Assembly (NCBI GenBank): GCA_965645245.1
Contig: OZ287079.1
Span: forward strand, 1,364,001-1,428,000
Length of the DNA stretch: 64,000 nt
Source of the DNA: Massalongia carnosa
Lineage: Eukaryota
Direction: 5' to 3'
The translations under genes and the position numbers were made by a program. This document shows positions 7,859 through 57,853 of this stretch, one piece after another (the stretch's first letter is position 1; each line of letters begins with the position of its first letter). The notes under the pieces are model-generated. The model did not search any database and was not told the DNA's origin. It was given only the letters and a program-made list of their open reading frames with translations.

Positions 7859-8447
7859 TCAGCTACTGTCTTCCGTATCATCCTCGTCGTCCTCCTCATC
7901 CTCCTCCTTATCCTCCTCGTCCTCCTCGTCCTCCTCGTCCTCCTCGTCCTCCTCGTCCTCCTCGTCCTCCTCGTCGTCCTCCTCGTCCTCCTCGTCCTCC
8001 TCGTCCTCCTCGTCGTCCTCCTCGTCCTCCTCGTCGTCCTCCTCGTCCTCCTCGTCCTCCTCGTCGTCCTCCTCGTCCTCCTCGTCCTCCTCGTCGTCCT
8101 CCTCGTCCTCGTCAAGGTCCTCCTCCTTCTCCTCTCCGTTCTCCTCGTCATTCAAAGCCTTTTGTATAGTCCTAGTAGTTAGCGGACGTACATTGAAGTT
8201 TGGCCAGAAATTCTTTGACAAAGATTAACTAGAGGAACGTGATTCTGATGGAGGAGGAGGAACAATTATAGGTTCAGAATCGTGCTCGGATGATTGCTGC
8301 TTCAATTTTCTAGTAAATTTGCTAATATCGCGAGCCAAACGTATGCCGATGCCAGGTTCGATTCCCATTTTCTCCCATTTTTCCTCATAAACAGTATCTT
8401 TCTACTGCTGAATGGCTTGGTTTATAAATCAGAGTAAACAAAACAGG

Positions 8448-8823: not shown

Positions 8824-9302
8824 ATGATTGGAATAACTACGTTGAAAGTTTATACAAACGACAATCAAAAGGATATCATTAACCATATTATCCTATAGAC
8901 TGCAAAGGGCAGTGTGAAGGGGAGGAGGGCTATTAGCTCCTGCACCAAATTCTAGTGTGTAGTCCAATTCTTTCGGGGTTCAAAGTTCGGCACACTATTT
9001 TGCAAACTGGTGTACGTTAAAACGCAATTATTATAATAAAGAAATTTTATAAACGTTATTCGAATAAGCTTCAATAATTTACATCCATTGTTATCAATAA
9101 TTTACTTGAAATTAGACCTTAATAAAGAGAGTTATTGCCATGATAAAATTTCCACATCAACCTGGGGTGCCACCTTTGCCAAGGCAAGGCAGGTTTACAG
9201 TGCCGTAGTGCGTCCGGCCATGACATATGGGTCAACCGTATAGCACATGCCCAAAGAAGTCAAAAAGTCAAAGACGTCAACGAGCAAGCTCTCCGTGTAA
9301 TT

Positions 9303-9472
9303 TGTAACGGTTCGACCAAGCGTGGTGCGGACGGCAGGACCTACAGCGATCATAGCAGGAGTCCCAGTTATAGTAGAATAGAGCTTGGTCTGCGGACTAA
9401 GTATTGTGCCTTTTGGTCGGGAGGACAGGTAGCGCAATAGTAGAAATCTATTCACTATCTCGCTTCGTCACA
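9303..9472 (+). mobile_element. Solo LTR of the TRIM family, inside a probable ~400-bp solo LTR (9296-9861)
   Basis: Matches 53269-53439; TSD TAATT. Confidence 0.9.
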
Positions 9473-10173
9473 TAATTCGCGGGCTCCATCGTGTCAGCTG
9501 AACAAATATAATTTCTATCTATGTTTGGGCAACTCTCCCCTCGCTGCTGCCCTGCTGGCGCTCAGATTTGCTGAGGGCCCCTCCTATAATAGCTTTGTTT
9601 CAGTAGAAGTGAGAGGGGGAAAACTCCATCTACCTATGCGGCTGACTTAGGGAGTTAGTGGGTGGGCAAAGGACCTTTTTTTGCTGATCTCCGAATCAAT
9701 AGTGATGATGAGGAGAAGAGTGCCAAAAGGCCATCTATTTATGCCCTTTCTTTCCCCTCCTTGTCCAACTATTTGGACATCATCCTCCTTCGGCCTTTGT
9801 TGGCTATCCACGGCCTTGCCTCTACTCGGTCCCGTCATTACCTTTCGCCCTAGCCGAATTACTCATGTAAATAATTGCCTTTGCACTATAGCCGGTGCCT
9901 TTAAAGCCACTCCTATCTCAGTACTAGAAGTAGAGATATTCATAGCGTCTATAGACACGAATCTCGACATGGCATAAGCATAGGCAAGGCACCGGCTCCG
10001 AGGCTGAGGCTAATTGATGATCATCTCCTCCGCATGCAACAAAATAACTGACAAACTTCTAGGCAAGGCAGGTCGCAAACGACTTCAAAAGCCCACCCTG
10101 GGAGAGCCGAAACACGTCTGGACTAAAAGCCTACTGATCGACTCAAAAATAGTTAAACCATCAAAGGCACACC

Positions 10174-10741
10174 TATGACGAAGCGAGATAGTGAATAGAT
10201 TTCTACTATTGCGCCACCTGTCCTCCCGACCAAAAGGCACAATACTTAGTCCGCAGACTAAGCTCTATTCTACTATAACTGGGACTCCTGCTATGTTCGC
10301 TGTAGGTCCTGCCGCCCGCACCACGCTTGGTCGAACCGTTATACTACTGCCCGTCTAGCTGCGGCTAGCCCCTAGCCGCTTCCAGTTATAGTTAGCCCCG
10401 AAGAATGGGCTCTTCTTAGCGTACCGCCCTCGCCGATCCGACTTAGAGAGTTTTCATCCAACCCTTTCCCGTTTCGTCCTAGCTTCAGTCCGTCGAAGCA
10501 AGGCGAAAAGCGAGGAACTCAGGTCAGGAATCGAACTCACGACTAGTACACCGATTGATGACTAAGTATTTTATAACGAAGCGAGATAGTAAATAGATTT
10601 CTACCATTGCGCTACCTGTCCTCCCGACCAAAAGGCATAATACTTAGTCCGCAGACCAAGCTCTATTCTACTATAAATAGGACTCCTACTATGTTCGCTA
10701 TAGGTCCTGCTGTCCGCACCACGCTTGGTCGAACCGTTACA
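10174..10741 (-). mobile_element. Complete TRIM copy
   Basis: Two ~168-bp LTRs plus ~230-bp internal region, reverse complement of 53269-53839; TSD ACACC/ATACC. Confidence 0.9.
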
Positions 10742-11526
10742 ATACCAACCATGGTTCGAAGTCTACCCGGCGTAGCATCGCGAAGCTACCGTTGCGGCAA
10801 CGGCCCGACACTAGCAGATGCAATTAATTAAAGCACAACAAATAAAGGTCTGGAACGACTCGTGGTGGGCATATCAAAATCGCGTCAACGAACCATCCCA
10901 CGCGCGTGACAGAAACAGGCGGACACCAAAATAAGCATCACATTTACTATCACATTATTATATATCGGTCCTCCTCCTTCTACACCATCGGTCCTCCTCC
11001 TTCTACACCATCGGTCCTCCTTCTACACCATCGGTCCTCACCACGGAGACGCCAAAGGCCTCACCGTGGAGCGACCGACAAACATAGATTTGCTCCTATC
11101 TTTTCGCATCAAAACAATGCTAATTTAACGCGTTCACACGCGTCGCAGACGTACGTACGGAAGAGGATACGAAGGCCAACCGCCGGGGGGTAGAATGCGC
11201 GCGTCCCTGCACCATGCTTCTAAGGGTTCAAGTCCCTTCATGCAGTCATCAGCTGGAAGAAGATGTGGACCAAAGGAGCCGCATCATCCCCCACCCGGGC
11301 ACAATCGACACGCGTTCTAGCTCCTGAGAGTTCAAGTCTCCCCATGCAGTCATCAGCTGGGATCAACAGAACGCGTAAAGGCACCGGGGCGAATGCTGTC
11401 ACCTCAAGAAAACTCCATCTTGGAGCAGAATAACAATATCCCATTTAATAGGCCCGGCCTGTTAAATAAAATCGAGGAAAACACAGAGTCACAAAACACA
11501 TATTTATCAATCACACGTTGTACAAA

Positions 11527-11670
11527 GCACACAGTCACAAAGCACACAGTCACAAACATACAGTCACAAACACACAGTCAAAAAACACACAGTCACAAAA
11601 CACACAGTCACAAAACACACAGTCACAAAACACACAGTCACAAAACACACAGTCACAAAAAACACAATCA
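11527..11670 (+). repeat. 15-bp tandem repeat (ACAAAACACACAGTC)n, about 9 units
   Basis: Directly visible. Confidence 0.95.
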
Positions 11671-12820
11671 CAAATCAATAACACGTCCCTGTGAAGGGGG
11701 TTCTGCGGGGGCTCGTTAAGACAGATCTGCACCCCGTTAATATCGGCGTACATATTTTTAGAGGTTCAAGTCCTTTCTAGCAGTCATCAGCTGAAAATGA
11801 TGCATTTTGACACGGGCATGGTGTGGATTTGACACGGGTAGACCTCGATGGATCACAAAACGAATGAAAAGAGTTCAGCGGAACTTCGTTAATATTGTTC
11901 TCGAAGACCTCGTTAATAAGATTTTCATAGACCTCGTTAACAACGTTCAGTCATACTCTTAAAGGTTCAAGTCCTTTCATGCAGTCATCGGCTGAGAGCT
12001 AAAGACGTACGACACGGGTCAGCTATGTCTGTCACACGGGTCTCCTTCGTCTACAACACGGAGCCCTCCGGCTGAAAGAAATAAAACATATAGACACATA
12101 GTGTAGGGTCACACCCTACACGATACAAGGGATTTGGGTTATGAAAACCATCCGATTGATGGCTACCGTGAGCAACACGGCCCGAACCGGAGTCGTACCG
12201 GGGATGGTAGAGGCAACCTAGTCATCAAATAGGACACCCTTGGGACAAGAAGAGGGCAATATACGAGGAACCCGTTAATTGATAACAGTCTAGGCCCTGA
12301 GCTAATAGACGAATTTCAAACGAGCACCCCTCCGAGTTGTCCTCGACTCGTTTTGGTTAGTAGGGACGGAAAATCGATACTATACTGCCTGGTCAGGAGC
12401 ATAGTAGTCGAAATCCCTGCGAGACATGGTCGGTTCATAAACGGGAGACCTTTATGAATAACGCGAAGTGGGCGTAAAAAACCCGTGAGGCGTGGTATAC
12501 AATGGCGGCCACCGTACGGAGACCGTCTGCATAGCCCGAGAGGACAGTATGCGCATGTCGGTGTATATAGAGCAGGGAATGTCTATCTCGCTCGTAACGA
12601 GACCCCGTCGGTTCGCCGGCGCATGGGCTACGGCTAGACTCGCCCTTGATATATGCTTAAGGAGTAAACTGGGTTTGACCTGGGCGAAAGGGACGTCGTT
12701 CACCCCAATCGTAGAATTCATCAATAATCTTGGGCCGTAAAACGCACCAGTGAGATGAACGAAAACTGGGATAGAGACTTCACGAAGGAGAGAGATGTCA
12801 ACTCTATTTTATCATTCTTA

Positions 12821-15232
12821 GCCTTACTGAATTGTCTTGGTAAAATTGCGGAGAAAATAGTTGCTAATCGACTAGCCTACCTCGGCGAAAATTCGAGCTT
12901 GTTAGATACCGAACAAATGGGCGGACGGAAAAATCATTCTGCAATCGATGCGGTAATGAACGTCGTTCATGATATCGAAATCGCAAACCGAAACAAAAAC
13001 GTTTTATCATGTCTATTACTCGATGTCAAAGGAGCATTTGACTTTGTTTCGATTAATCAATTGCTAAATGTTATGAAAAAGCTGCATTTATCTCGCACAG
13101 TTATTCAATGGGTCAAGCATTTTATGACAGAACGATCGATCAATTTGATATTCGATGAACACAAAAGCAAAACGTACTATATCGAATCTGGAATTCCACA
13201 AGGTTCACCAATTTCGCCAATTCTATTTCTGATTTATATTCGTTACTTATTTCCGAAAATACGAATGAAATTCAATGCTCATTCACCTAGCTTTATAGAC
13301 GATGTTGCAATATATGTCGAAAATAAAACTGCCATACAGAATTGGAAAGAAATCGAAATTATCGTCAAAACAGCTTTTGATTGGGCCGCAACGAATAATG
13401 TCAAATTTGATGACGACAAATCTGAGTTGATTCACTTCGAAAAGTCAAGAAATGCATCAAAAGACAATGTGCAATTACCAAACGGGACAATACTAGAACC
13501 GAAAAATTCTGTCAAATGGTTAGGAGTCTGGTTAGACCGAAAACTAAATTACAAAAAACACGTCGGAACGCGAATTGCTTCTGCAAATCGATCGTTTTTC
13601 GCAATTCAAAATTTGATGAAGTCTGAATGGGGACTAAAACCAACTGCATGCAGAAAGCTCTATTTGTCATGCATTATTCCTATTTCGGACTATGGCTCAG
13701 AAATCTGGTATAACGGTCAAAAAAAATATGAAAAGCTATTTCAGAATCTGCAAAATCGAATGATTCGAAAGATTTTAGGCACATTCAAAACGACGCCTGT
13801 TCAGGCGATGGAAATTGAATCGCATATTTTACCAGCCAAGCTACGATTGTTGATGAAAAATCAAAAATACGCAATTCGATTATTGAAGATTGCCGAAAAT
13901 AATCCTATTTGTCAAAGAATTCCCAGTACCTATACGGTGAAATTTGAAAACATTGGTTTTGACACTAGTTTATGGAACAACAGATATGCTGAATGGAACG
14001 AAGACGAGAAAAAATCGAGTAAACCTCATCCTAGTCAGCTTATCCGTATTCTTCATTCCGTTTCGGATATAGTTCACAAAACTGATGAATTCGAATCAGT
14101 AAATAATTTCATCAAACCATGGAAGCCGTCTTGTAAAATCAAGTTCCAAATCGAAAGATCAAAAGAAACAGCAAAGTCAAGTTATTATTCGACTTTATCA
14201 AAAATTCAATCAATAAACGCCGATAAATCGCAAATTTTACTCTATACCGATAGATCAAAAACCGAGTTTTCAACTTCCGCTGTCACATTTGCACCAATTA
14301 CGCGAAATTGGAACAATTTCACCGATAACTTCAATCGTTTTATCGAAAAAGATTGTCTCCTCAAACATCATACGATTTCGAAAAGCTGGAAATTAAACAA
14401 ACAGTCAAGCGTTAAAAACGCTGAACTGTATGCGATACTACAAGCAATAAAATGGGCATACAAATTGACAATTGAGAATATTCTCTTCAATTTGGAAAAA
14501 ACGATTTGGATTTTTTCCGATAGCATAAACGCGATAAACGAAATTCAGAACTTGACAAATCATACTTACGCAAAACAAATTCGAAAATTCTCGAAATGCT
14601 TATTCGGAAACAATTATCAGGTGGTTCTACAATGGATTCCTAGTCATTCGAAAGTCGTCGAAAATGAAATTGCAGATAAAGCAGCAAAAGCGGGACATAG
14701 TCGAATCCTAGTCGAGTCTTCGATAATAACATTTGATTATGTGAAGGGTCAAATAAATCGAAATATGTTAGCCAAATGGGCGAATCAATGGCAACAATGC
14801 AAGTCAAAAGGCAAATACTATGAGAAATTCGAAATGCAGCCGGGCAAATCGAGTTTTTATTATCTGTCGAATAATTGTTCTAAATTAATATTTGCAACTA
14901 TTATGCAAATAAAATTCGGACACGGTTATTTTCGATCATATCTGCACCGATTGAAAGATTATAATTCGTCAAAATGCACAGGGCGCTGCAACGAACGTCA
15001 AACGCCAGAACACTTATTGATGAATTGCATACATTATTCAAATGAAATCCTAAACATGAAACAAAATATCGATACCACAATTACTTTAAAAATGTTGTTT
15101 AATACTAGGATCGGAAATAATATTTTGATGAAATTTATTGTTGATAACAAAATCGCGACTAGAAAATGGATGCTAGGTCAGCTCGATGACGAAAATATCG
15201 AAACGGGAGGTTGGGGAGAGATCGAACAGTAA
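12821..15232 (+). CDS. LINE ORF2 portion: reverse transcriptase, RNase H, CCHC (endonuclease missing)
   Basis: ALLNCLGK, LDVKGAFD, GIPQGSPISP, FIDD, WLGVWLD; RNase H AELYAI/FSDS/WIPSH; first ~22 aa of the track ORF (12755-12820) come from the foreign segment. Confidence 0.95.
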   Translation, partial: ALLNCLGKIAEKIVANRLAYLGENSSLLDTEQMGGRKNHSAIDAVMNVVHDIEIANRNKNVLSCLLLDVKGAFDFVSINQLLNVMKKLHLSRTVIQWVKHFMTERSINLIFDEHKSKTYYIESGIPQGSPISPILFLIYIRYLFPKIRMKFNAHSPSFIDDVAIYVENKTAIQNWKEIEIIVKTAFDWAATNNVKFDDDKSELIHFEKSRNASKDNVQLPNGTILEPKNSVKWLGVWLDRKLNYKKHVGTRIASANRSFFAIQNLMKSEWGLKPTACRKLYLSCIIPISDYGSEIWYNGQKKYEKLFQNLQNRMIRKILGTFKTTPVQAMEIESHILPAKLRLLMKNQKYAIRLLKIAENNPICQRIPSTYTVKFENIGFDTSLWNNRYAEWNEDEKKSSKPHPSQLIRILHSVSDIVHKTDEFESVNNFIKPWKPSCKIKFQIERSKETAKSSYYSTLSKIQSINADKSQILLYTDRSKTEFSTSAVTFAPITRNWNNFTDNFNRFIEKDCLLKHHTISKSWKLNKQSSVKNAELYAILQAIKWAYKLTIENILFNLEKTIWIFSDSINAINEIQNLTNHTYAKQIRKFSKCLFGNNYQVVLQWIPSHSKVVENEIADKAAKAGHSRILVESSIITFDYVKGQINRNMLAKWANQWQQCKSKGKYYEKFEMQPGKSSFYYLSNNCSKLIFATIMQIKFGHGYFRSYLHRLKDYNSSKCTGRCNERQTPEHLLMNCIHYSNEILNMKQNIDTTITLKMLFNTRIGNNILMKFIVDNKIATRKWMLGQLDDENIETGGWGEIEQ

Positions 15233-15517
15233 AATTAGAAATGATTTATGCTGGAATATTTACGAGCTTTACAAAAACAAATTTTAAAATCGATATTTCG
15301 ATTACTAAAGGTTGTTACTAACACGAAGTAAAAACGGGGCAATATTGACGATACATAGTTGGGTTATAAAGGGTTGATTTATTTGTAAAATAAAACCATA
15401 TCTTAAAATAGTTTAGTGTCATAACCTTAGGTTGAATACACTTAATGAATAAATAAAAAAAAACACCAAAATAAGCGAATATCATCAAATTTGAACTTGA
15501 TACCATCTACAAAACAG

Positions 15518-16633
15518 TTACCATCCAGTCATCTTGCCATTCATGTCTAAAACGTCATCTATTCTTTTAGGCATTGATTCGATCCATTCATTAATCGTTT
15601 CCTGAGAAAGACTGACCCAACCCGCCTTAATTGCAGCTATTGTGGTGTCGTCATCCCAATGAGGTTGACGACCTACCCGTTGTTTGGGCACCTGCCAGCA
15701 ATTTTCGATAGGAGAAAGATCAGGAGAACGAGGGCAGTTGAAGTAGTATTTTAGCCCATGCTCGTCCTTCCATCTTCGTACAATATTGTCCTTCCCCGAT
15801 CCATGTCCTGAATCGCCATCTTCTTCCAACACGAAATTCGAGTCTGTTTCGAGCCATGTTTTTACTACCGGTTCCAGAATGAAGTCAATATACACCTTCT
15901 GACTCATCTTTCTATTCGAATTGCTGGGAACCTCATAAAAAATCAGCTCTGATTTGAAGTTCTACCCCACAGCAGCCCAAAAATGATATCGTTTCTGTTT
16001 TTTATCCTTCTCTTCAGGCTCATGTTGTTCCTGAATGCAGTCCTGACACGTACGCTCGCCAGGTTTTCGAATGATGCGTAGTCTTCGTTAAGGTCCTCGT
16101 CCGAAATGAACTTCATCGGAAAAGCGAACTCTTTTCCAATCATTTAACGAGTATGTGTTTCGTTTGTTCCAAGCCCAGTCCTTTCGTGCAGTCATCAAAT
16201 CTTTCGGGACGTAGGTTTTTGTGCATGCGAGACATTTACGATAGTTTCGTTCATGCATCGCTCGTTGTATAGTACGCCAGGAGACGGAGGAAGTCTCAGC
16301 AGCTGCACCCAGTTGATTCCAGGTCAGTGATCTTCCCTCCAAGCCCCAGGTTTGCAATATTTCATCCATACGATCTATCTGCTTCTTTGACAATTTACGA
16401 GGCTGACCACGAGTCTCCGATTTGTTTGTATGACCATGCCGTCGATTAGTTTCTTGATCGTTGAGTATTTCATAACCTCGAGTATGTCCCACGCCGAAAA
16501 ACTCGAAAACCTCTCGCTTTGAACGCAAAATTCCTTTCGCCTGCAAAAATTCAACAGTACCCTGAACTTTCGCCTTCGTAGGAGTGGCATGCTCGGTATT
16601 TATAGTGATTCGTGACTCTAGAACAGGCTCCAT
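15518..16633 (-). pseudogene. DD37E transposase with premature stop
   Basis: VRFSDEVHF, EEDGDSGHG, SPDLSPIENCW (37 residues between second D and E); TAA at 16088-16090. Confidence 0.9.
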
Positions 16634-16940
16634 TGCTTATAAAGAATTGATAAATGTGTATATATACGATGTAAAAATTAAAAAACTAAGGAGTAGGTGG
16701 TGCGGGGAAATTTTGGTGTCCGCCTGTTTCTGTCACGCGCGTGCCTCCATAGCACAATCAGTTCCACTGAGCAAAAAACGGCTGAAAATACATACGCAGC
16801 TAAAAAAGGCAGAAAGCGCTCTAACAATACAAATCCGCACTGGCAAGATCGGGTTAGCTGACTTCTTCTGTAAGCAACGGGTGCCCTCCGTCACCTTACC
16901 GGCCTGCTCATGTGGCTGGCGCAGACAAATTCCAGAATAT

Positions 16941-36880: not shown

Positions 36881-37537
36881 TACGCCGCGCACCGGGTCGG
36901 GTTTCTCTACTGAAAACCCAACCCGTTTGTGGCGAATCCTATTATTTTTGGTGTCCGGGTTGAGTTTTCAGAGAAAAACCCGGTGGCGAAAAAGTAATTT
37001 TGTGGCGAAAACCCAACCTATTGCGCGGCGTAGGTTAAACCCGTCGGGTTTGTATCGGGTTGGACTCCCTCGAACCCGACCCGACGGGTACGGGTTTTTT
37101 ATGCGGGTTTCCGGGTTAAACCGTTCAACCCGGTCAGTTTTTTCTGCTAAGTAAATATGAAAATTCGACGAAAATATGCCGTTTAAAGAGCTATAATTTT
37201 TGCTTACTAATTATTATTTCTTGATGACTAATTTTCAGAATTTTCAGAATTTTCAAATGTGTTTAAAACGTCTAAAAAAACACATTTAAATTGATATAAA
37301 AAATTGTGACGAAGCGAGATAGTGAATAGATTTCTACTATTGCGCTACCTGTCCTTTACCAAAAGGCACAATACTTAGACCGCAGACCAAGCTCTATTCT
37401 ACTATAACTGAGACTCCTGCTATATTCGCTATAGGTCCTGCCGTCCGCACCACGTTTGGTTGAACCGTTATACTACCGCCCGTCTAGCTGCGGCTAGCCC
37501 CTAGCCGCTTCCAGTTATAGTTAGCCCCGAAGAATAG

Positions 37538-37773
37538 TGTTGAATGTTCAACTTCTACCAGCATTGCCTTGCCGATAGATTAGATAAGATCAGATCTAAT
37601 CTAATCACATAGAGGCTCGGATAAACTATTATCATCTCGCTTAGGAGAGGTGACCAACATAAAAGGAACAGATCGCTCTGCACTCCGTAGCAACTCTGCA
37701 TCCTTAACATCATGGTTATACAGGCCCCTATCTTTACATATTCATATAGCCATAGTCATAGATATATTCAACA
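37538..37773. mobile_element. Family-C solo LTR (236 bp, TGTTG...CAACA)
   Basis: TSD AATAG; inverted copy at 57854-58089. Confidence 0.9.
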
Positions 37774-38132
37774 AATAGGCTCCTCTTAGCGTACCGCTCT
37801 CGCCGATCCGACTTAGAGAGTTTTTATCCAACCCTTTCCCGTTTCGTCCTAGCTTCAGTCCGTCGAAGCAAGGCGAAAAAGCGAGGAACTCAGGTCAGGA
37901 ATCGAACTCACGACTAGTATACCGATTGATGACTAAGTATTCTGTGACGAAGCGAGATAGTGAATAGATTTCTACCAATGCGCCACCTGTCCTCCAGACC
38001 AAAAGGCATAATACTTAGTCCGCAGACCAAGCTCTATTCTACTATAACTGGGACTCCTACTATGTTCGCTATAGGTCCTGCCGTCCGCACCACGCTTGGT
38101 CGAACCGTTATACTACCGCCCGTCTAGCTGCG

Positions 38133-39162: not shown

Positions 39163-40387
39163 CTGCGGCTAGCCCCTAGCCGCTTCCAGTTATAGTTAGC
39201 GCCGAAGAATGGGTTCTTCTATGCGTACGGCCCTCGCCGATCCGACTTAGAGAGTTTTCATCCAACGCTTTCCCGTTTCGTCCTAGCTTTATTCCGTCGA
39301 AGCAAGGCGAAAAAGCGAGGAACTCAGGTCAGGAATCGAACTCACGACTAGTACATCGATTGATGGCTAAGTATTCTGTGAAGAAGCGAGATAGTGAATA
39401 GATTTCTACCATTGCGCCACCTGTCCTTCCCGACCAAAAGGCACAAAACTTAATCCGCAGACCAAGCTCTATTCTACTATAACTAGGACTCCTACTATAT
39501 TCGCTATAGGTCCTGCCGTCCGCACAATACTTAGTTGAACCATTACAAAAATCTACCGGGTCGAACGGGTCAAACGGGTTAACCCGGGAACGGTTCCCGA
39601 ACCCGGTAGTGGGTCGGGTTCGACTAGTCTAAACCCGACCCAACCCGACCTGTTGCGCGGCGTATGTCGAATTCTGAAATTTCTTATCATCTATCTCGTC
39701 ATCGTTATTATAGTTAGATCAAGTTATAAGAAACTGCTGATTAAGAAACCTCGACTACTAAGAAACTTAGACGAAAAGACCGATTTTTCCCTGATAAGGA
39801 TTAAGAAACCTCGCTCTATTAGAAAGTTTCTTAACTTTCTCTAAAAATTTTGCGGTGATTTTTCATAGTTAATATTACTTCTTCTTTGACTTTGAGATAT
39901 AATAATTGTCAGGACTCGGGTGTGGGAGCGCTAAATCCAACGGCTCTTTCCGACCGAAGCTTCGGAGATAAGCTTCTAGAGCCGGATGGAAACTTCGAGA
40001 AGAAGGGCAAACGGGCATATAGATTTCACATTCTTCTTTGTAGATAGATTTCTCTTCTTCATGCTTAGTCTCTTAGGTAGCTGACTACTATTCGTCTTCC
40101 CTGGATAGTGGTTCTTACATTAGACTAAGCATCTTCTTTAACCCTTGCTATCCTGAACACGATATTAAACCGTTCAACCAGGAAAATTAGAAGAAGAACC
40201 CGGAACTTAGACTAGAACCAGATCATAGGACCTTAGAAGCAAGGATTTCTAGGCCACCAGAATTACCAGAATCAAAAGAAGAACTCAGACCCAGAAGAAC
40301 CAGAACCCAGGATCGTAGAAACCAGGATTTCTCGGCCATCGAATAGAAGATCACAAGATAAGAACACCCCCAAGAAAGAAAGAAGAA

Positions 40388-53268: not shown

Positions 53269-53839
53269 TGTAACGGTTCGACCAAGCGTGGTGCGGACGG
53301 CAGGACCTACAGCAAACATAACAGGAGACCCAGCTATAGTAGAATAGAGCTTGGTCTGCGGACTAAGTATTGTGCCTTTTGGTCGGGAAGGACAGGTAGC
53401 GCAATGGTAGAAATCTATTCACTATCTCGCTTCGTCACAGAATACTTAGTCATCAATCGGTGTACTAGTCGTGAGTTCGATTCCTGACCTGAGTTCCTCG
53501 CTTTTTCGCCTTGCTTCGACGGACTGAAGCTAGGACGAAACGGGAAAGCGTTGGATGAAAACTCTCTAAGTCGGATCGGCGAGGGCGGTACGCTAAGAAG
53601 AGCCCATTCTTCGGGGCTAACTATAACTGGAAGCGGCTAGGGGCTAGCCGCAGCTAGACGGGCGGTAGTGTAACGGTTCGACCAAGCGTGGTGCGGACGG
53701 CAGGACCTACAGCAAACATAGCAGGAGACCCAGTTATAGTAGAATAGAGCTTGGTCTGCGGACTAAGTATTGTGCCTTTTGGTCGGGAAGGACAGGTGGC
53801 GCAATGGTAGAAATCTATTCACTATCTCGCTTCGTCACA
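53269..53839 (+). mobile_element. Complete TRIM (571 bp; 171-bp LTRs at 53269-53439 and 53669-53839)
   Basis: TG..CA, TSD GCATC, purine-rich AGACGGGCGGTAG before 3' LTR; removal restores QWHPIAFWS. Confidence 0.95.
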
Positions 53840-54812
53840 GCATCCTATTGCTTTTTGGTCAAGAAAAATGCATGCAGCCGAATTAAACTACGGTGTTGGC
53901 GAAACAGAAATGTTGGCCATTGTTGAAGCATGTAAGGAGTGGAGACATTATCTTGAGGGGGCGATACATTCGATTCGGGTAATAACCGATTATTGTAATC
54001 TTCGTACCTTTCTTACTACCAAAAATTTATCTAGACGAGAGGCGAGATGGTGGGAAAGACTTTCTAGTCTTGATCTCGTTATTGAATATCGTCCAGGTCG
54101 TCATAATCCAGCCGATGGACCCTCTAGACGCCCGGATTATATGGAAGAAAGGCACGACTTGTCTTATCAAGCCGGAGCTATAATTCCTGGAAGATTCGGG
54201 GGGGTCTCGGAGAGGAATCTGGGTGGGATAGAGGAGCTCATTACGTCAAATTAGAGAATGGCCCTTGTAAATGATGAATCTCAAGTAGCTGACGATGCTA
54301 TGGACTGGGAATCTACTATAAATGAATTATCAGACGGGGCAAATCGCAATTTGATGAGTCCACCCGTTGTCGACAAAAATTGTCGGAGTACTGCGCAGGC
54401 CCAACAAACCACTGAAGGAATTGGAATTGATTCGGCTGAAATTGTCGAAATTTCTGAAATTCTTGCGGTTGTTGGAAGAACTAAGGGGACAAAATCAGGA
54501 ACTAGTTCCGATACCTCTCAGTTACAGGAGAAATTGATTAATTTAAAATCAGTTGGACTCAAACTCGTGGAAACTTTGGATGAGAAGTTTGAAATTTCTC
54601 GGAAAGAGATAAAAAATGTCTCTGAGAAAGACTCGGCGTTTGGGGCCGCCCCAGTAGAACTACGCACCGTTTTACAAATTCTGCAAGAGCCTGATCAACT
54701 AGTGCAGAAGAAACGGCCCTCCATCGCATCGTCGATGGATGAGGGGCGGAATTCTATAGGACGACTACATGACGCGTCGAGGGATAAATCGGGGGGTAAC
54801 GAAGACTCGTCA

Positions 54813-54972
54813 TGTGACGAAGCGAGATAGTGAATAGATTTCTACCATTGCGCCACCTGTCCTTCCCGACCAATACTTAGTCCGCAGACCAAGCTCTATT
54901 CTACTATAACTGGGACCTGCTATGTTCGCTGTAGGTCCTGCCGTCCGCACCACGCTTGGTCGAACCGTTACA
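54813..54972 (-). mobile_element. TRIM solo LTR
   Basis: TSD CGTCA. Confidence 0.9.
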
Positions 54973-57853
54973 CGTCAGGCTCTCAGGTCCGAGACGGACG
55001 CGAGTCGGAGGGCGAAGTCGAAGGAGACCCAGAAAAAACCCGATGGCACATGAAGGATAATATCCTCTGCAGGGACAATAGGTGGTATATTCCCCCTGGT
55101 CTATTACGTGCTGAACTTTTGCGGCAGAATCATGATGATCCCAATGCGGGCCACTTTGGTTATTCCAGAACGTTGGGATTGATCCAGAGGAAATAATATT
55201 GGCCCGAAATGGTAAAGGACATCAAGCATTATGTGGAAACGTGTACTCGTTGTCATCAAGTTAAATCGTCCAGACATAAGCCCTTCGGATTATTAGAATC
55301 CCTACCCGTACCAAAAAGGCCTAGACAAAATTGGACGATAGACTTCATAACGGATCTGCTCCCGAGTCTCCGCCGAACCGTGTGTCAGGACCTGCCATAA
55401 AGACTACGGAGAAGGATACGGAAAAGGGGCATCAGCATGGACTCGGCCGCCGAACCCGGCCCGACCCTAATGGGCTGATTCCGCTGTCGGCCACATGCCG
55501 TCGAGGGGGGACGGCTGGCGAGGGGGACGGCTGGAAACCCATGTCGGATGGCACTAACCGCCCAAAGGGGCCGGGAGCCATTTGGACTAATCAGATAGCT
55601 GGGGGCTATCCGATAAGGGAGTCTTAGGGGGAGACACGTCTGTAGGATAAAGAGGTCGATGCCCACCTTATTCTAAGGGCATAGATCAATAACATACATT
55701 ATTGAGTTACCCCCTTCACGTGACCAACACGCCCTCTGAGTAGAAGCATACGTCTTACACTTTGATCTATCCAACCTTCTAGGGAGCCCGTTGGTCATTC
55801 CTCATTACCTCGACATTTCAACCTATGGTATTAACTAGATCGCAAATGTCTTCGTCCACCGCTTCCGGGGCGAACCCGACACCTAACCCGGACGAGACCC
55901 TAATTTCCGCCACCATGGCAGACATGCAGCGAGAAGTTGAGGCCATTGAGGCTGAATGGAAGCAGGCGCACCTAGCCAAAACGCTGGAGGACCTGAAGAA
56001 GGAAATGGCCGCCGGCTTCCCCACTCTCACGGATCGAACCAAACCCGTCGACCCGCTGGCCCTGGAAAGGTCTCTTCGTTCCGTAGACCCGACGACCTAC
56101 GCCGGCGACAATCAGCGGGCGTTTGACACATTCCTACGTGACTGCAAGAGAACTTTTCTGCAGAAGCCAGTCACATACGAATCGCCCTCGGCACAGGTCC
56201 TCTACGCCGAGAACTATCTATGCGGAGCCCCTGCCGACGATTGGCACCGTGAGAAGGAAGCGACGACGAAGGCGGCGGAAGGTGAGCTCACCTAGAAAAT
56301 CTTTGCTGACTTCCTCCAGGAAAAGCTCAAACCGAAGCATCTACGCTTGATGGATCTGGGGGGAACAACTGAAGAAATTACGCCAATTCCAGGGGCAGAC
56401 CGTGTCCGATTTTGTCACATATCTGGAAAGCCTAGAAGCTCAACTCCCCGAACCCCCCACGGAAATGCAGAAGCATTCCAACCTCCTACACAGCGTGCAC
56501 GACTACTTGAAGACGGCTGTGATCCGGGCGGGTAGTCAGGGGACGACCAGGGCGGAACTGGTCGAGGCGGTGAGGATTGCGGAAAGGGTTGAGCCAAAAC
56601 CCGATGGATGGAAGAAGACTTTCAATAAAAGCCGGAATCAAAATCGAAACAATCAATCTTCCTCAACCCCCAAACCTGAAGAAGATGGACCCGCTGACGC
56701 TCCACAGGCACCCGTGATTAATCCGAACCACCAATCAAACAAAAGAAAGCTGGATGATCAGGAAGATCAGCAAGATCAAGAAGCCCCGCCCCCTACGAGA
56801 CCAAAAGGAAATCGGTCGGATAAGGATTGCTGGAACTGCGGGAAAATGAGGCACCTTCAATTCGAATGTCGGTCCCGGCCGTCGCCGCGGGGATCGTCCC
56901 GCCGGCCGGGAAAAGGTCGGGGCCAATAGACGTTGCCTCCGTCGTATTGGCCCGGCAAATGAGGAAATCCCCATGCCGCCACCTCTTCTCAACGGTTTTC
57001 CTATATTACGACAACAGTCAGCATCGTGTCCGAGCAATGATCGACTGCGGAGCAACTTGGAACCTTATCGCTCAAACCTGGCTAAATGAGGTAGGTGTTC
57101 GAGATCCTCCCGGCTCCCTTCCACCATCTGGGTTGAAAACTCTCGATGGAACCCCCTTCCAGACTTATTTTGATCATGCCCTGCGCGTCGGGGTTGTTGA
57201 TGACAATGGTCTTGAGCGAGTGGCCGAGCAGGCATTCGTCGCGTCAGACATGTATGGGGTGGACATGATCCTGGGCTTGCCCTGGTTGGGTCATGCCAAT
57301 CCATCCATCGGCTGGCGCGAAAGGAGGATAATCCATGAAAGCCACCTCATCGAGGGTGAAGTACGAGATGACCTGCCAGGGGAACGTCCCGGGGTCACTG
57401 TAGGCGATGAGGAAACCCCTCATCGAAGTAGCAATCTCCCAGTAGTGGCAATGGTGAGTGAGCAGGAGATCTTTGACATCTGCGAATGCGAGAGCGTCGA
57501 CGCATTCCTAATAGACATTCGGGAAATGCTCGGTGGGAGCCCGGAGAGTCGGAGTCAATAGTTGGTGCCATCTCTACGTCTAGCAATAAACTTCTGCCTC
57601 TGTATCAATCCTACAGTGACGTCTGCTCCAATGAAAAAGCTTCAGTGCTACCAGAACGAGGGCCCCACGACCATAAAATCAATCTGGAAGGCGAACCACC
57701 CCCGACCCGGGCCATGTATAACCTCTCCCTCACCGAACTAGAAACCCTAAAAGACTACATCGACGACAACCTGGCAAAAGGGTATATTACCCATAGCACC
57801 TCACGACTAGGCGCGCCCATCCTATTCACCAAGAAGAAATATGGTAGTCTACG

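Follow-up and report, generated by a model that had tools for sequence, protein, structure and literature searches.

One question raised by a 64,000-nucleotide stretch of the Massalongia carnosa genome (assembly GCA_965645245.1, contig OZ287079.1, positions 1,364,001 to 1,428,000; here called the window, with positions counted from its first letter) is why a single insertion of a long interspersed nuclear element (LINE) should carry in its non-coding leader four copies of a hairpin that looks like the T arm of a tRNA. Is it the RNA or the DNA of these copies that matters, and what might they do for the element? An earlier note, made from the letters alone, had reported the copies as an unrecognised T-loop motif and had taken them for a repeated, selected RNA structure. 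The analysis described here indicates that each copy is the core of a larger unit, and that the units are very probably an RNA module that an RNase H-bearing LINE carries, in the sense direction, in its 5′ untranslated leader. The leader location, the three-way junction and two larger structured RNA domains further downstream had all been missed by the earlier note.

The four copies lie in direct orientation on the + strand, where they had been reported, and nowhere else in the window. A search of both strands with a 26-nt pattern, allowing up to 3 mismatches, returned exactly 4 matches against a mean of 0.00 in 100 shuffles, and a repeat search grouped the copies as one 44-nt family. Every copy has a hairpin (P2) with the loop TTCAAGT on a stem that varies but stays paired, followed by a 3-nt linker and the 14-mer GCAGTCATCRGCTG, and the spacers between copies are, as had been said, unrelated and unequal, with start-to-start distances of 104, 434 and 201 nt. 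This core stands as first described but its extent had been understated: when copies from the window and from relatives are lined up the true unit is some 85-90 nt long, with a closing stem around the core and, in copies 3 and 4, additional CGTTAA and ACACGGG boxes. It opens at the 5′ side with a CGTTAATAC box and closes at the 3′ side with a AACACGGG box, and between them come, in order, the block YGGCTTY, a variable strand, a U, the T-arm hairpin, a linker of three variable nucleotides, the unvarying 14-mer and another variable strand that complements the earlier one. A covariance model of the unit (R1, described below) finds only these four in the window, at 56-74 bits, with the next best match at 7.7 bits when filters are off; a degenerate fifth unit proposed at about 12270-12340, where there is a CGTTAA-like box, is not recognised by the model with filters off. 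Units 3 and 4 are also surrounded by surplus boxes beyond the one pair per unit (five CGTTAA and four ACACGGG boxes, in 11714-11940 and 11808-12050), as are the units of one related locus (L056), and unit 4 is the sole window copy with CGGCTG.

Each unit is predicted to fold as a three-way junction of the stems P1, P2 and P3. P1, the closing stem, has its own sequence in every copy; where the CGTTAA box pairs with the ACACGGG box, as it does in many copies, the stem continues further out. In several copies this outer pairing joins CUCGU of the first box to ACGGG of the second, both in RNAalifold and in single-sequence folds, and in the minimum free energy fold of unit 3 it is CCCGU that pairs with ACGGG. 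P2 is a 5-bp stem bearing an invariant tRNA-type T-loop (G-UUCAAGU-C), and P3 is a small invariant hairpin, CAGU-CAUCA-GCUG, which lies within the 14-mer and is returned by both kinds of folding. At the junction the conserved residues are a U before P2 and a G before P3. In the modelled fold, two invariant loops, UUCAAGU and CAUCA, sit on stems that are free to vary.

The relatives were obtained by scanning public metagenome contigs with the pattern GTTCAAGTC-N7-GCAGTCATC, which gave 63 loci; motif matches among viral contigs numbered 0. As judged by eye, the full motif is present in 45 of the 63 loci, where AGCTG or a near variant follows the match and the flanks are as in the window, and the remaining 18, judged from their flanks, look like chance matches. 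R1 was built from 32 units, which were left when 70 regular-expression matches with full flanks had been freed of one chance locus (L027) and greedily thinned to less than 93% identity. It matches every true locus searched (42/42), with 111 units across the loci, 85 of them distinct, and among the 18 chance loci it matches only L026 and L027, both weakly and the latter over part of the model. The units form arrays of 2-4, which are dispersed in the window and elsewhere are often head-to-tail tandems with periods of 112-119 or 183 nt. In several copies (L002, L020, L022, L028, L042, L046, L048 and L060) most departures from the consensus are C-to-T or G-to-A at CpA/TpG, for instance GTTTAAGT and GTAGTTATTAG, a pattern that resembles repeat-induced point mutation.

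Fundamental to the RNA interpretation is the way in which the paired strands change together. Two alignments bear on this: A2, a MAFFT alignment of the 32 units below 93% identity, which is not fitted to a structure and in which pairing was counted for a predefined structure, and A3, a larger alignment fitted to R1 and hence biased towards the model. In A2, 82.2% of paired cells are complementary, a level reached in 0 of 500 shuffles of the 3′ letters (70.7%), and the figure falls to 40-59% when the partner strand is slid. P2 is paired at 96.3% in A2, with both-side changes in four of its five pairs, and each of the four inner P1 pairs has both-side changes in 7-12 sequences. An alignment-free comparison gives a mean of -12.1 kcal/mol for pairing between a unit's own flanks, against -7.6 (sd 3.2, n=906) for flanks taken from unrelated units; within the window, copy 2 has the clearest flank complementarity (its outer closing stem in Table 1). 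In A3, P3 is paired at 96.8%, with two units in which G-C replaces C-G, and one position of P0, the outer pairing of the two boxes, reads CG 28 times, TA 9, CA 6 and TG 2. The earlier note had paired the 3′ GCTG with upstream TCGGC, TCAGTC or CTAGCT instead. This pseudoknot, taken as 3′ AGCTG with upstream CTGGCT, is weak, being 77% paired with three of its five pairs varying on one side only and a single compensatory case, in window copy 4; the local CAGU/GCUG hairpin fits better and was preferred.

The mismatches that remain carry information on the strand. Decay of a DNA palindrome should yield G.T and A.C in equal numbers, and so the excess of G.T over A.C in P2 and inner P1 (30 to 5 in A2, 62 to 22 in A3) indicates that selection acts on the RNA of the + strand. 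Covariation in P1 and P2 is strong and, on the evidence of sequence comparison, the unit is a real RNA element.

What carries the units in the window is one retrotransposed insertion, as shown by the identical 13-mers that flank 10937-15463 together with the run of A at its 3′ end. This LINE copy is about 4.5 kb long and is without ORF1 and endonuclease. Its leader meets the reverse transcriptase (RT)-RNase H open reading frame (ORF) at 12823/12824, a junction recognised from contigs of other runs that diverge there. For instance, run X7 has loose ends at both 12823 and 12824, each side continuing into other sequence, and its contig 27 carries 11027-12823 with 27 differing letters, unjoined to 12824, while 12824-15463 lies elsewhere in the same record; in run X6 there is a loose end at 12824, and the contig over 12285-12823 continues unlike the window. 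The ATG of the ORF (12755) belongs to leader-derived sequence, and the frame is kept through the junction (12824-12755 = 69 = 23 codons). Its 825 codons without a stop suggest a recent, possibly expressed, endonuclease-less derivative, which may have arisen either by internal deletion or as a template-switch chimera of leader RNA and truncated LINE cDNA. The copy number of the 15-nt tandem repeat between units 2 and 3 differs between genomes, the X7 contig skipping 11568-11627. In run X2 as many as 20,811 contigs match positions 9000-16000 of the window (7 kb), compared with 19 in the probable source run, and hence in one other organism at the least the LINE family and its neighbours have multiplied and diversified enormously. 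Of the words of 10900-12700, 62% recur in a lichen metagenome run.

The same context recurs in other loci. A tblastn search of all 63 loci with the window ORF and three ORFs of locus L009 gave matches in 12 loci from 10 contigs, and the LINE coding part lies downstream of the units on the same strand in 10/10. L009 has the fullest order, with four units, a 149-aa ORF, an apurinic/apyrimidinic endonuclease (APE)-type endonuclease (Exo_endo_phos_2) and then the RT (RVT_1). The point at which the leader joins ORF2 varies. The window copy has it at about the RT start, in L060, L014, L038 and L062 it falls within residues 130-220 of the RT query, and in L012 and L020 it is where the endonuclease ORF ends. 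L015 keeps a unit, the 3′ end of a downstream domain (domain B, below) and residues 1-34 of ORF1, which run straight into residue 228 of the endonuclease ORF. Such shortened copies may have arisen by internal deletion or by template switching onto leader RNA. In one family with many copies (L003) the full-length 5′ ends cluster at about 2119-2142 (6 copies), the truncated ones lie at 2290, 2290, 2313, 2425, 2593 and 2630, and the tail is (TAAT)n. None of 14 copies of this family starts at a unit, nor does the window copy, and the sequence that precedes the first unit in the DNA copies runs from 257 nt in the window to about 830 nt in the L003 family.

Downstream of the units the leader contains two further domains. 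For domain A, RNAalifold gives 40 pairs, 18 of them with both-side changes (12 sequences), and for domain B 75 pairs including long-range helices, 34 of them with both-side changes (13 sequences); the domain B alignment (A4) has long invariant single-stranded blocks, and its indels are not multiples of three. Domain B is also found in L001, L009, L011, L012, L014, L025, L035, L038, L044, L056, L060 and L062. Both domains are conserved in most loci at 67-78% nucleotide identity, as against RT proteins that are 23-36% identical to that of the window, and of the RNAs in the leader domain B may be the more important. The long-range helix of domain A uses AGUCAUCA, a string shared with the units' 14-mer and paired locally with UGAUGGCU. 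Pairing of the units' own AGUCAUCA with the domain A strand UGAUGGCU was considered and rejected, as no covariation links domain A with the units: in L011 and L056 domain A covaries with its own partner strand while the units there keep CAUCA.

Table 1 Coordinates of the units, the LINE-derived element and its surroundings in the window.
Feature	Position	Strand	Remarks
Unit 1	11194..11281	+	R1 63.1 bits; own closing stem CTTCT/GGAAG
Unit 2	11298..11382	+	R1 56.3 bits
Unit 2 outer closing stem	11310-11318 (ACGCGTTCT) x 11368-11376 (AGAACGCGT)	+	9-bp perfect complement, also in predicted fold
Unit 3	11733..11816	+	R1 73.9 bits; CGTTAA box, closing stem CATATTTT/AAAATGATG, ACACGGG box
Unit 4	11933..12018	+	R1 71.7 bits; CGTTAA and ACACGGG boxes
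P2 T-arm hairpin, copy 1	11222-11238	+	AAGGG/CCCTT; loop 11227-11233
P2 T-arm hairpin, copy 2	11326-11342	+	GAGAG/CTCCC, one A.C
P2 T-arm hairpin, copy 3	11760-11776	+	AGAGG/CCTTT, one G.U
P2 T-arm hairpin, copy 4	11961-11977	+	AAAGG/CCTTT
14-mer	11242-11255, 11346-11359, 11780-11793, 11981-11994	+	GCAGTCATCRGCTG
LINE-derived element	10937..15463	+	5′ leader joined to RT-RNase H ORF; ends in 9 A
Target-site duplication, left	10924..10936	.	13 bp, identical to right copy
Target-site duplication, right	15464..15476	.	13 bp, directly after run of 9 A
Non-coding 5′ leader with units	10937..12823	+	1.9 kb; ends at junction 12823/12824
Tandem repeat in leader	10964..11039	+	period 20-23 nt, about 3.4 copies
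Tandem repeat between units 2 and 3	11478..11674	+	period 15 nt, 13.2 copies
Leader domain A	12090..12252	+	70-76% nucleotide identity to at least 12 loci; includes hairpin 12105-12123 and long-range helix GAUUGAUGGCUA/UAGUCAUCAAAU
Leader domain B	12340..12700	+	about 350 nt, directly upstream of first long ORF; 67-78% nucleotide identity to many loci
Intact ORF, 825 aa	12755..15232	+	RVT_1 and RNase_H, C-terminal Cys/His motif; no endonuclease domain
Inverted-repeat left arm of Tc1/mariner-like host element	10899..10932	+	34 nt, 100% match to 16743-16710
Rest of Tc1/mariner-like element	15518..16743	-	DDE_3, HTH_Tnp_Tc3_2 pieces and right inverted-repeat arm

The LINE is inserted inside a Tc1/mariner-like element, which it splits. 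With the LINE taken out this transposon (10899-10936 plus 15464-16743) is about 1.3 kb, mariner-sized, and its transposase is in at least three reading-frame pieces. The window as a whole is rich in transposons and evidently fungal, with a Spo7 gene, a Ty3/gypsy element with a chromodomain and a Mutator-like element (MULE) transposase. Just before the host transposon, at 10173-10745, lies an element some 570 nt long, whose terminal direct repeats measure 174 nt and are 92% identical. Further full or partial copies are at 9305-9470, 37307-38132, 39163-39548, 53269-53840 and 54812-54973, and run X2 covers the element to a very high depth; a small long terminal repeat (LTR)-like element of the terminal-repeat retrotransposon in miniature (TRIM) type is one possibility and another non-autonomous repeat is a second. 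Repeats of the TCCTCCTCG type, with periods of 9, 21 and 30 nt, form an array of 269 nt at 7881-8149.

Does the module belong to an RNA class that is already described? Rfam gave no match in the window at gathering thresholds, none at E<=10 on 10900-12300 (4227 families), and none at E<=1 in 15 related loci, including the tRNA, ribozyme, signal recognition particle (SRP), telomerase and internal ribosome entry site (IRES) families, and ARAGORN predicted no tRNA either in the window or in 21 related loci. The 14-mer, its reverse complement, a 19-mer, a 26-mer and two domain B blocks were absent from the paper text searched, and keyword searches returned nothing relevant. The RNA family is thus absent from Rfam 15 and was not found in print by string or keyword search. 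With homologues that covary, a wobble bias and no described family that matches, the earlier view of a repeated, selected RNA structure distinct from tRNA, hammerhead and CRISPR patterns holds good.

One likeness is to tRNA, as the earlier note had seen. P2, a 5-bp stem closed by G-C with the loop UUCAAGU, carries all of the T-arm invariants, numbered G53, U54, U55, C56, R57, A58 and C61. The loop also fits exactly the Pus4/TRUB1 stem-loop consensus, which is quoted as GUUCNANNC in PMC13492117. However, the units are without cloverleaf, D arm, anticodon arm and acceptor stem, they carry an invariant 14-mer that tRNAs do not have, and the rest of the unit branches from the 3′ side of the T-stem, where in tRNA it does so from the 5′ side. 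A second likeness is to the 5′ protein-binding motif (PBM) RNA of the R2 element, a structured sense-strand RNA of a LINE transcript's 5′ region that is kept by covariation and that binds the element protein and directs the second half of integration (PMC6895275). R2 differs in being site-specific, with a restriction-like endonuclease and a single pseudoknotted element, whereas here an APE-type LINE with RNase H has its module two to four times; there is no sequence similarity between the R2 RNA and the units, for which protein binding is putative.

The units also recall the 5′ untranslated region monomers of mouse L1, in that both are repeated leader units of about 100-200 nt in variable number, tandem in several of our loci (112-183 nt). 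The L1 monomers act as promoters at the DNA level, have start sites inside them and are not reported to have a covarying RNA fold; the units, by contrast, have stems that covary with a strand bias, no genomic copy starts within one, and in the window they are dispersed. HDV-like (hepatitis delta virus-like) ribozymes and Pr77, of R2 and L1Tc, are likewise short conserved structured elements in the 5′ region of non-LTR retrotransposons, but those define the extreme 5′ end, while the units are internal, repeated, plain three-way junctions with no Rfam ribozyme match. With the SRP Alu domain and the P6.1 region of telomerase CR4/5 the likeness is one of topology only, a closing stem with two small conserved-loop hairpins, P3 (4 bp and a 5-nt loop) being of the same size as P6.1; the sequences are dissimilar, the loops differ and Rfam gives no match. 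These two, and the hammerhead, were considered for their likeness in topology or in short strings and were rejected for lack of any model match. The module belongs to none of the tRNA, L1-monomer and R2 families.

As to function, we tentatively favour, at rather less than an even chance, a cis-acting, multi-copy RNA for the docking of a protein. The module would act in cis at the RNA level, displaying its two invariant loops on variable stems. The partner would most likely be the element's own ORF1 or ORF2 protein, as with the R2 5′ RNA, with a host factor that recognises T arms as an alternative suggested by the fit of the T-loop to the Pus4 consensus. The leader would mark the transcript for assembly and mobilisation, which would explain why non-autonomous deletion derivatives keep it. 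Four arguments suggest docking. Conserved loops on free stems are the usual signature of a recognition site; repetition raises avidity; the leader is retained in derivatives without ORF1 and endonuclease, which must be mobilised in trans; and there is the precedent of R2, whose 5′ RNA is bound by the element protein (PMC6895275).

Several points weigh against this interpretation, either in the fold or in the function. The predicted fold has an ordinary stability (z -1.25 to +0.66), which is uninformative, the outer P1 pairs in A2 are only partly in register and often shifted by bulges, and P3 is so nearly invariant that covariation tests it weakly. All relatives were retrieved through the motif itself, so that derivatives without it could not be sampled, and many of the metagenome copies are close relatives from one assembly series, whose counts are not independent events. 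Integration of APE-type LINEs is not known to depend on a 5′ RNA. An internal promoter explains the retention of the leader in deletion derivatives equally well, and the loop, which fits the B-box consensus, and the CAGCTG within the 14-mer are possible sites at the DNA level.

Among the alternatives to a protein-docking RNA, the one that survives best is a translation element, unlikely as it is, in which the units and domains A and B would together form an IRES-like platform that delivers ribosomes to the first ORF behind a long leader, the T-loop modules making contact with the ribosome or with a translation factor. There are 27 ATGs in the 1.9-kb leader, the number that composition predicts and so without depletion, which makes cap-dependent scanning look costly; its RNA is large and covarying; and in the window, L015 and L001 only 20-90 nt separate the end of domain B from the first long ORF, the ATG that opens the 825-aa ORF of the window derivative being 86 nt past the domain. 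However, a fixed distance from domain B to the start codon was not found (21, 55, 86 and 273 nt), the units, whose number varies, are as far as 350-1500 nt upstream of the ORF, the whole leader is kept even in derivatives that have no ORF1, and the Rfam IRES families are unmatched.

Decidedly improbable is a DNA-level element, with the units as internal-promoter modules like those of mouse L1, or as a chromatin boundary of B boxes (the TFIIIC site) that protects the promoter. The B-box consensus is GGTTCGANTCC, and the T arm agrees with it through GGTTCAAGTCC in three of the four window copies and AGTTCAAGTCT in the fourth, GGTTCAAGTCC agreeing with the RNA polymerase III (Pol III) consensus at 10/11 positions; GTTCAAGT is nearly invariant across the 85 distinct units. 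To this may be added the palindrome CAGCTG, a consensus motif too, the head-to-tail arrays found elsewhere, and the leader held on to by non-autonomous copies, as would be expected of a promoter. Double-stranded DNA sites, on the other hand, need no arms that change in sequence and yet stay complementary, nor does such an element predict the excess of G.T over A.C, and the absence of starts within units in the L003 family is unlike monomer promoters with internal starts. No copy fits, by inspection, an A box (consensus TRGCNNAGTGG) 30-60 nt upstream of the B box, the only conserved block upstream in A2 being YGRCTTY, about 24 nt before it. With no A box, and with T-runs inside them, the units are not Pol III genes.

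Very unlikely is an element that defines or protects the 5′ end of the transcript, either as a self-cleaving ribozyme, as a substrate for RNase P or RNase Z or as a block to Xrn1. The T arm is a recognition feature for both RNase P and RNase Z. In the units, though, the branch leaves the stack of T arm and P1 on the 3′ strand, the reverse of tRNA, and hence the units are not a standard substrate of either enzyme. HDV-like ribozymes at LINE 5′ ends (PMC3774820) provide a precedent, and a three-way junction with invariant loops would suit the role; ribozyme models (hammerhead, HDV-like, twister, pistol, hatchet, hairpin and VS) gave no match, though pseudoknotted HDV-like folds can escape such models. 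The sequence that precedes the first unit, and the lack of starts at a unit, also count weakly against an end-defining role. Of the features of an exoribonuclease-resistant RNA (xrRNA), the three-way junction is present, and the one candidate for the pseudoknot with the 5′ end that would close the ring is CTGGCT/AGCTG, 77% paired with a single compensatory case. That the units are functionless relics, tRNA- or SINE (short interspersed nuclear element)-derived fragments duplicated in the leader and carried passively, is scarcely credible, for although the T arm is a perfect tRNA-type T arm and LINE leaders are known to acquire foreign sequence, the loops and 14-mer are almost invariant and the stems covary across these divergent elements, and neither ARAGORN nor Rfam gives a tRNA or tRNA-like match.

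There is also a bolder reading, which is speculative and improbable to about the same degree as the translation element. The units would be permuted mimics of the tRNA elbow, made up of a T arm, a short D-arm-like hairpin and an acceptor-like stem, and with domains A and B they would constitute a structured RNA machine of about 1 kb in distantly related fungal LINEs, recruiting host factors that handle tRNA (Pus4, Trm2, Trm6/61, eEF1A or the ribosome) or the element's RT. If so, it would be a new class of large functional RNA in eukaryotic retrotransposons, with a complexity like that of viral IRESs or R2 PBM RNAs.

Structured cis-acting RNAs of LINEs are well studied in few cases, namely R2, L1Tc and L1 3′ ends. 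The leader architecture described here recurs across LINEs whose RTs share only about a quarter to a third of their residues with that of the window, and it persists in their non-autonomous derivatives, which suggests that an RNA function is under strong selection in this abundant group of fungal retrotransposons. Its small size, its repetition and its clear compensatory variants make the module directly testable. Should it bind proteins of the element or tRNA enzymes of the host, it would help to explain how the RNAs of APE-type LINEs come to be selected in cis and how deletion derivatives parasitise them, and would provide a new natural context for the T-loop motif.

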